Shown in pieces: positions 23,353 through 23,526 of a DNA stretch of 64,000 bases (within the stretch, counting starts at the first letter, position 1; every line of letters starts with the position of its first letter). This DNA is from Escherichia coli. GTDB taxonomy: Bacteria > Pseudomonadota > Gammaproteobacteria > Enterobacterales > Enterobacteriaceae. The position numbers and the translations under genes are program-made. Location: assembly GCF_003334355.1 (NCBI RefSeq), contig NZ_QOWP01000007.1, one strand, 5' to 3'. Below the pieces are notes generated by a model. The model was not told the DNA's origin. It ran no database searches and saw only the letters and a list, made by a program, of their open reading frames with translations.

Positions 23353-23382
23353 GCAGATGACCTACTCCCTGATTATGTGACA

Positions 23383-23396
23383 GATAAAACGTTTTA
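23383..23396. promoter_or_regulatory. MalI operator half-palindrome box 1
   Basis: gataaaacgtttta in the malI-malX divergent promoter region. Confidence 0.7.
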
Positions 23397-23460
23397 CCTT
23401 TTATTTATCTTATACCCGCTATTATCGTTGCGTAATGTGATTTATACCTCACTAAAATTT

Positions 23461-23476
23461 GATAAAACGTTTTATC
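23461..23476. promoter_or_regulatory. MalI operator box 2, perfect 16-bp palindrome
   Basis: GATAAAACGTTTTATC, a perfect palindrome about 50 nt upstream of the malX start. Confidence 0.75.
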
Positions 23477-23526
23477 TTCTCGCGCAATTTACTGAATCCA
23501 GATTGTTCTCTACGAGGAGTCGTTTT

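Follow-up and report, generated by a model that had tools for sequence, protein, structure and literature searches.

Paired 16-bp boxes in the malI-malX control region of Escherichia coli, read as operators of the repressor MalI

The malI-malX Locus

The sequence analysed here, called the window throughout, is a 64-kb stretch of Escherichia coli DNA. It contains two divergently oriented genes, malI and malX, separated by a 174-bp spacer (23353-23526) that is bounded by the malI ATG (minus strand, ending at 23352) on one side and by the malX ATG at 23527 on the other. The genes and the translation signal that frame this spacer are as follows.

22324..23352, minus strand: malI, LacI/GalR-family repressor, 342 aa (open reading frame; NCBIfam NF007449; RefSeq annotation)
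23514..23519, plus strand: malX ribosome-binding site GAGGAG, 7 nt before the ATG at 23527
23527-25119, plus strand: malX, PTS EIICB, 530 aa (NCBIfam NF007509, PTS maltose EIICB; RefSeq annotation)
25129-26301, plus strand: malY, PatB-family C-S lyase and MalT antagonist (TIGR04350, 377 bits; RefSeq annotation)

The malI product matches the NCBIfam model NF007449 ("Mal regulon transcriptional regulator MalI") with 669 bits, for a cutoff of 310, over residues 1-342 of 342, and the malX product matches NF007509 with 1120 bits, for a cutoff of 665. Together, malX and malY (23527..26301, plus strand) form the operon repressed by MalI. The wider gene order is uidA-uidR-hdhA-malI / malX-malY-add-ydgJ, and the AGGAG core of the malX ribosome-binding site is kept in the alignment of orthologues.

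The locus is a standard component of the species. A segment of 281 bases around the spacer is present in 5414 of the 5426 complete E. coli genomes, where its flanks are always annotated as malI and malX. When compared with K-12 MG1655 (NC_000913.3 1699100-1699450), the window is identical at 350 of 351 bases. The only difference, at 23446 (A in the window, G in K-12), lies outside the two boxes described below, within the 6 bp that separate the two CRP half-sites, and the corresponding column is not conserved across species. Since both boxes are unchanged with respect to K-12 MG1655, the experimental work carried out in K-12 applies directly to the window.

Two Near-Identical Boxes in the Spacer

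An initial annotation, made from the sequence alone, had pointed to a perfect 16-bp palindrome at 23461..23476 and to a second, near-identical box at 23383..23396, about 80 bp apart, between the divergent malI and malX starts. It had further proposed that MalI represses its own gene and malXY through these boxes. Reexamination bears out the description of the sequence, and extends the left box by two bases at the cost of one mismatch. Open reading frames and profile matches agree with the placement between divergent starts. The two boxes, both of them inside the spacer, are named here after the promoters that they are proposed to control.

23383..23398, unstranded: O_malI, MalI operator of the malI promoter, GATAAAACGTTTTAcC, which is GGTAAAACGTTTTATC on the malI strand
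23461..23476, unstranded: O_malX, MalI operator of the malXY promoter, perfect palindrome GATAAAACGTTTTATC

The right box, GATAAAACGTTTTATC, equals its own reverse complement and is thus a 16-bp inverted repeat centred on the CG at 23468/23469. The left box, written GATAAAACGTTTTACC or GATAAAACGTTTTAcC, matches it at 15 of 16 positions, the sole mismatch being a C for T at 23397; its portion GATAAAACGTTTTA (23383-23396) matches O_malX exactly. From O_malI, on the left, to O_malX, the distance is 78 bp from start to start. A repeat finder also recovered the pair, both as an 18-nt direct repeat and as a 15-nt inverted repeat that is perfectly complementary. An imperfect inverted repeat, I2 (23374-23392 with 23396-23414, 74% complementary), merely overlaps O_malI.

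How far such sequences depart from chance was assessed within the window. It holds two perfect 16-bp palindromes, for an average of 1.0 in composition-preserving block shuffles. One 16-bp palindrome in 64 kb is therefore about the chance level, and palindromy by itself is not significant; the signal resides in the second copy and in conservation rather than in palindromy. When up to three mismatches are allowed, a search of the 64 kb recovers two occurrences of the 16-mer, both in the malI-malX spacer, the shuffle expectation being 0.38; 3 of 100 shuffles reach two occurrences anywhere in the window. A position weight matrix (PWM) for the MalI operator, built from the orthologous sites described in the next section and scanned over the same 64 kb, scores the two boxes at 31.2 and 29.4 bits, for 8.9 bits at the next best position. 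No auxiliary or third MalI site was found by this PWM within the 64-kb window.

Conservation of the Boxes in Enterobacteriaceae

Orthologous loci were collected by a scan with the MalI protein, keeping one genome per species. This yielded 80 loci with 69-99% protein identity, from taxa that include Escherichia, Citrobacter, Salmonella enterica arizonae, Leclercia, Lelliottia, Enterobacter, Klebsiella, Kluyvera, Raoultella, Trabulsiella and Pseudocitrobacter; with the window added, the sample comprises 81 sequences. In all 80 loci malX is divergent from malI, and in all 80 both boxes are found with at most two mismatches. The spacing between the boxes is 79 bp in 75 of the 81 sequences and 78 bp in the remaining 6, the latter group being composed of the window, four other Escherichia loci and one other. 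This one-base difference between the Escherichia clade and the others maps to the short gap between the putative malI -10 element and O_malI. By contrast, the distance from box to start codon ranges from 25 to 54 nt for malI and from 42 to 54 nt for malX, a drift of up to 29 nt.

A MAFFT alignment of the 78 distinct spacers identifies the boxes as the best-conserved blocks. Mean column identity is 0.966 for O_malI and 0.969 for O_malX, against 0.836 for the 22-mer of the CRP site and 0.60-0.72 for the rest of the spacer. In the symmetrised logo, positions 1, 3-14 and 16 carry 1.78-1.95 bits, C8 and G9 being invariant, and positions 2 and 15 carry 1.08 bits, variation of the boxes being nearly confined to these two symmetric positions. 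At the three positions on either side of the 16-mer, the logo falls to 0.3-0.4 bits. Because the information content drops in this way at the edges of the 16-mer, the operator is exactly 16 bp wide, with a consensus G[A/G]TAAAACGTTTTA[T/C]C. The imperfect left box of E. coli is nothing unusual: read on the other strand it is GGTAAAACGTTTTATC, which is also the most frequent variant in the other species, and its mismatch falls at the one tolerant position.

A possible third operator over the malI -10 element was considered and rejected, as a match with 3-4 mismatches is present in some Kluyvera and Klebsiella loci, and 7 mismatches separate the corresponding stretch of E. coli from the operator. 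One such match is TATAAACCGTATTATC, with 3 mismatches, located 29 nt to the right of O_malI in the loci of Kluyvera intermedia and of an Enterobacteriaceae isolate (L063 and L070). This match over the malI -10 probably reflects the AT-richness of the -10 region and not a third operator.

Promoter Elements and the CRP Site

Conserved columns of the alignment delineate putative promoter elements for both genes and a CRP site.

23407..23414, minus strand: inferred malI -10, overlapping TATAAG (23414-23409) and TAAGAT (23412-23407), from conservation
23433..23454, unstranded: CRP site common to both promoters, TAATGTGATTTATACCTCACTA, centre 23443.5
23473..23478, plus strand: inferred malX -10, TATCTT, overlapping the right half of O_malX (operator positions 13-18)

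On the malX side, TATCTT is invariant in the 81 sequences, so that conservation extends 2 nt beyond the palindrome. Position 15 of O_malX, which lies inside TATCTT, varies in none of the 81 sequences, whereas 42 of them differ at the symmetric position 2; all variation of O_malX falls in the half distant from TATCTT. In O_malI, variants occur at both of these positions (25 and 12 times). Such an asymmetry would follow from a double role of the right half of O_malX, as half-site and as malX -10, which is how we would interpret it. On the malI strand, TATAA[A/G] is conserved in the orthologues 10-11 nt upstream of O_malI. Both -10 assignments are putative and draw on conservation and on reported coordinates. 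A generic scan for sigma-70 promoters and terminators over 23250-23650 found nothing, which is expected for promoters of this kind because the CRP site replaces the -35 element.

The CRP site has the layout TGTGA (23436-40)-N6-xCxCA (23447-51). Its 22-mer shares 15 of 22 bases with the CRP consensus and is separated from O_malX by 6 bp. TGTGA (23436-23440) is invariant and starts exactly 25 nt before O_malX in all 81 sequences; in the right half-site, C, C and A are conserved. The spacer has a single further TGTGA (23376-23380), immediately to the left of O_malI in the malI leader; it resembles a CRP half-site, but was rejected as a second CRP site, being kept in only 8 of 81 species.

This arrangement can be set against earlier mapping in K-12. 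In the 2008 work of Lloyd et al., a single CRP site is reported to be centred at -41.5 with respect to malX and at -43.5 with respect to malI. In the abstract of the 2010 study by Lloyd, Godfrey and Busby (FEMS Microbiol Lett 305:28), the malX operator is reported to extend from -24 to -9 and that of malI from +3 to +18, and each operator is reported to be dispensable for repression of the other promoter. All four of these positions fit the window together, with malX +1 at 23485, malI +1 at 23400 and the CRP centre at 23443.5; this fitted centre coincides with that of the conserved TGTGA-N6-xCxCA. malI and malX are among the CRP targets recovered by genomic SELEX (Shimada et al., 2011; PMC3105977). 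That study assigns different CRP molecules to the malI and malXY promoters, a wording that could suggest a second CRP site, for which the comparison of species gives no support.

Assignment of the Boxes to MalI

The identity of the protein that recognises the boxes is documented in the literature. Each of the two promoters carries a 16-bp target to which MalI binds (Sellars et al., 2017, PMC5543585, citing Lloyd et al., 2010). The same article, which also cites Lloyd et al. (2008), states the autoregulatory role of O_malI on the basis of Lloyd et al. (2010) and gives, in its supplementary primer table (primers D71689 and D71690), a "MalI DNA site" that reads GATAAAACGTTTTATC. O_malX (23461-23476) is identical to this published site. 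Moreover, a chromosomal array of 20 copies of the site recruits MalI:mCherry into foci in vivo, and array-free cells show none (PMC5543585). Genetic data come from populations evolving from a metC deletion, where frameshift and nonsense mutations arose in malI; loss of malI function was hypothesised to de-repress malY and thereby raise its expression (Guzmán et al., 2018; PMC6296033). A literature search for genome-wide MalI data by ChIP-exo, DAP-seq or SELEX found nothing specific. The comparison with published MalI sites that the initial annotation had called for thus has a clear outcome, the right box being equal to the published site and both boxes to those of K-12, and its proposal that MalI represses its own gene and malXY through the boxes is supported by the published work (PMC5543585) and by the comparative evidence.

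The protein itself has the features of its family. Residues 5-340 of MalI align to residues 2-325 of the 360 of LacI, and the closest solved relatives of MalI are LacI-family repressors. The leucine of the MalI hinge helix, L59 (in "ASAL"), is aligned with the hinge leucine of the solved structures 3h5o and 5ysz, and we take it to be equivalent to L56 of LacI and L54 of PurR. In LacI and PurR, one dimer binds per palindrome and the hinge helices sit at the central CG. The C-terminal tetramerisation helix of LacI, made of heptad repeats, has no counterpart in MalI when the two proteins are aligned.

Proposed Mechanism and Alternative Interpretations

Taken together, these data make it very probable that the boxes serve the LacI/GalR-family repressor MalI as two operators, one for each promoter, which act independently through the mechanism set out here. 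With MalI binding and repression taken from the literature, we infer the transcript starts, the mode of occlusion, the stoichiometry of the dimers and the independence of the operators as follows. One MalI dimer would occupy each 16-bp palindrome, each helix-turn-helix reading one half-site and the hinge helices lying over the central CG. Both promoters would fire divergently from the single common CRP site centred at 23443.5. O_malX would span the promoter spacer and reach four bases into the malX -10 TATCTT, directly downstream of the activating CRP site, so that MalI bound there would exclude RNA polymerase from a class II CRP-dependent malXY promoter. O_malI would lie just downstream of the malI transcript start (about +3 to +18), where bound MalI would block initiation or escape, and malI would thereby be negatively autoregulated. 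O_malX and O_malI are proposed to act independently of each other.

One alternative is that the boxes cooperate: MalI bound at both would form a loop or a higher-order complex, possibly with CRP in between, and the two promoters would be repressed together. The geometry of the region invites this idea, as the distance between the operators is nearly invariant (79 bp in 75 sequences, 78 bp in 6) in a spacer where the start-codon distances drift, and as the CRP site lies between the operators with O_malX beginning only 6 bp after its 22-mer. MalI also belongs to the same family as CytR, a protein that contacts CRP. However, nothing more is needed to account for the fixed distance than that each operator keeps its place relative to its own promoter core and that both promoters keep theirs relative to one CRP site. 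Furthermore, at 10.5 bp per turn, 78-79 bp would correspond to about 7.4-7.5 turns and would place the two dimers on opposite faces of the helix; MalI is without a LacI-type tetramerisation tail; and each operator is reportedly dispensable for the other promoter. Cooperation between the boxes therefore seems very unlikely. The same slight chance is granted to a more specific version, in which two independent steric blocks would be replaced by a fixed MalI-CRP-MalI nucleoprotein complex exerting CytR-like anti-activation through protein contacts. The independence reported in the 2010 abstract, the missing LacI tetramerisation tail and a spacing that is half-integral in helical turns all favour a separate operator for each promoter over a cooperating pair.

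It could also be imagined that another LacI-family regulator with a similar AAACGTTT core, PurR or a paralogue, binds the boxes and that their adjacency to malI is coincidental. The central AAACGTTT does recur in the operators of PurR and other members of the family, and E. coli has about 15 LacI-family regulators (PMC4797297). Against this, the sites co-occur with malI at a fixed geometry in 80 of 80 species, and the PurR box does not share the invariant outer bases G1, T3, A14 and C16. In addition, MalI:mCherry is recruited in vivo to arrays of exactly this 16-mer (PMC5543585), and loss of malI function has been interpreted as de-repressing the adjacent operon (PMC6296033). Recognition by a different regulator is accordingly highly improbable.

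Finally, the least credible reading, with a negligible probability, is that no specific protein recognises the boxes, which would be AT-rich palindromes arisen by chance or ordinary promoter DNA. Chance does predict one perfect 16-bp palindrome in 64 kb, and the region is AT-rich promoter DNA. This reading is nevertheless effectively refuted by conservation and by the logo, given a second copy with 15 of 16 matches 78 bp away, near-invariance of the boxes over 80 species while the surrounding spacer diverges, sharp information boundaries at 16 bp and symmetric variation at positions 2 and 15.

Other Features of the Window

Several further palindromes and one RNA element were recorded in the course of the analysis. 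Upstream of uidR (20634-21224, minus strand), the window contains a 14-bp perfect palindrome, ATTGGTTAACCAAT (21338-21351), and a copy with one mismatch, ATTAGTTAACCAAT (20290-20303), in the uidR-uidA spacer. Because they follow the same pattern, that of a repeated palindrome beside a repressor gene, these two sites are probably operators of UidR (GusR). The longest perfect palindrome of the window, 18 bp (TTCCTCAGCGCTGAGGAA, 27353-27370), lies within the last ~54 nt of add (26405-27406, plus strand), a gene that converges on ydgJ (27440-28519, minus strand). The third-best match of the operator PWM, GGTAATACGTTTTGCC (40231-40246, 8.9 bits), falls within a 428-aa open reading frame (39928-41214, minus strand) and is most likely due to chance. 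A member of the enterobacterial sRNA family STnc550 (RF02081) was identified at 61506-61896 (minus strand) with 396.5 bits over the full model, the only match in the window to reach an Rfam gathering score; it lies between a 389-aa open reading frame (60174-61343, minus strand) and a 341-aa one (61897-62922, plus strand).

Relation to Known Systems

The feature described here is already known: its genetic mapping dates from 2010, and the 16-mer has already been used as an operator array for chromosome tagging. The present case illustrates that an operator can be called correctly from the sequence by a reader without tools. The comparative data bring refinements, namely an operator width of exactly 16 bp, the tolerance of positions 2 and 15, and the probable dual use of the right half of O_malX. 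They also indicate that the operator-promoter-CRP-promoter-operator module is rigid across Enterobacteriaceae.

The locus and the boxes are the same as those of the MalI operators of the K-12 malX-malI region (Reidl et al., 1989; Reidl and Boos, 1991; Lloyd et al., 2008; Lloyd, Godfrey and Busby, 2010). Nothing functional differs between the two, the strain of the window having one substitution (23446) in the spacer of the CRP site. As for other operators of the LacI/GalR family (the PurR box, gal OE/OI, the CcpA cre, lac O1), the boxes are 16-bp inverted repeats with a central CG. The system as a whole also resembles LacI/GalR systems in having a presumed dimer with an N-terminal helix-turn-helix and hinge helices, an adjacent autoregulated repressor gene and an operator that would overlap the core of the promoter. 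The outer bases of the half-sites (G-A/G-T...A-T/C-C), on the other hand, are specific to MalI with respect to the other operators of the family. Unlike lac O1/O2/O3 and gal OE/OI, the MalI boxes give no sign of looping between them; MalI has no LacI-type tetramerisation tail; and, in contrast with looping systems, the spacing of 78-79 bp would not be in helical phase once converted into turns. Lastly, the region resembles divergent CRP-dependent promoter pairs, with a single conserved CRP site between back-to-back promoters. It differs from other pairs that share CRP in that each promoter has its own repressor operator, one over the putative -10 element and one downstream of the predicted start.
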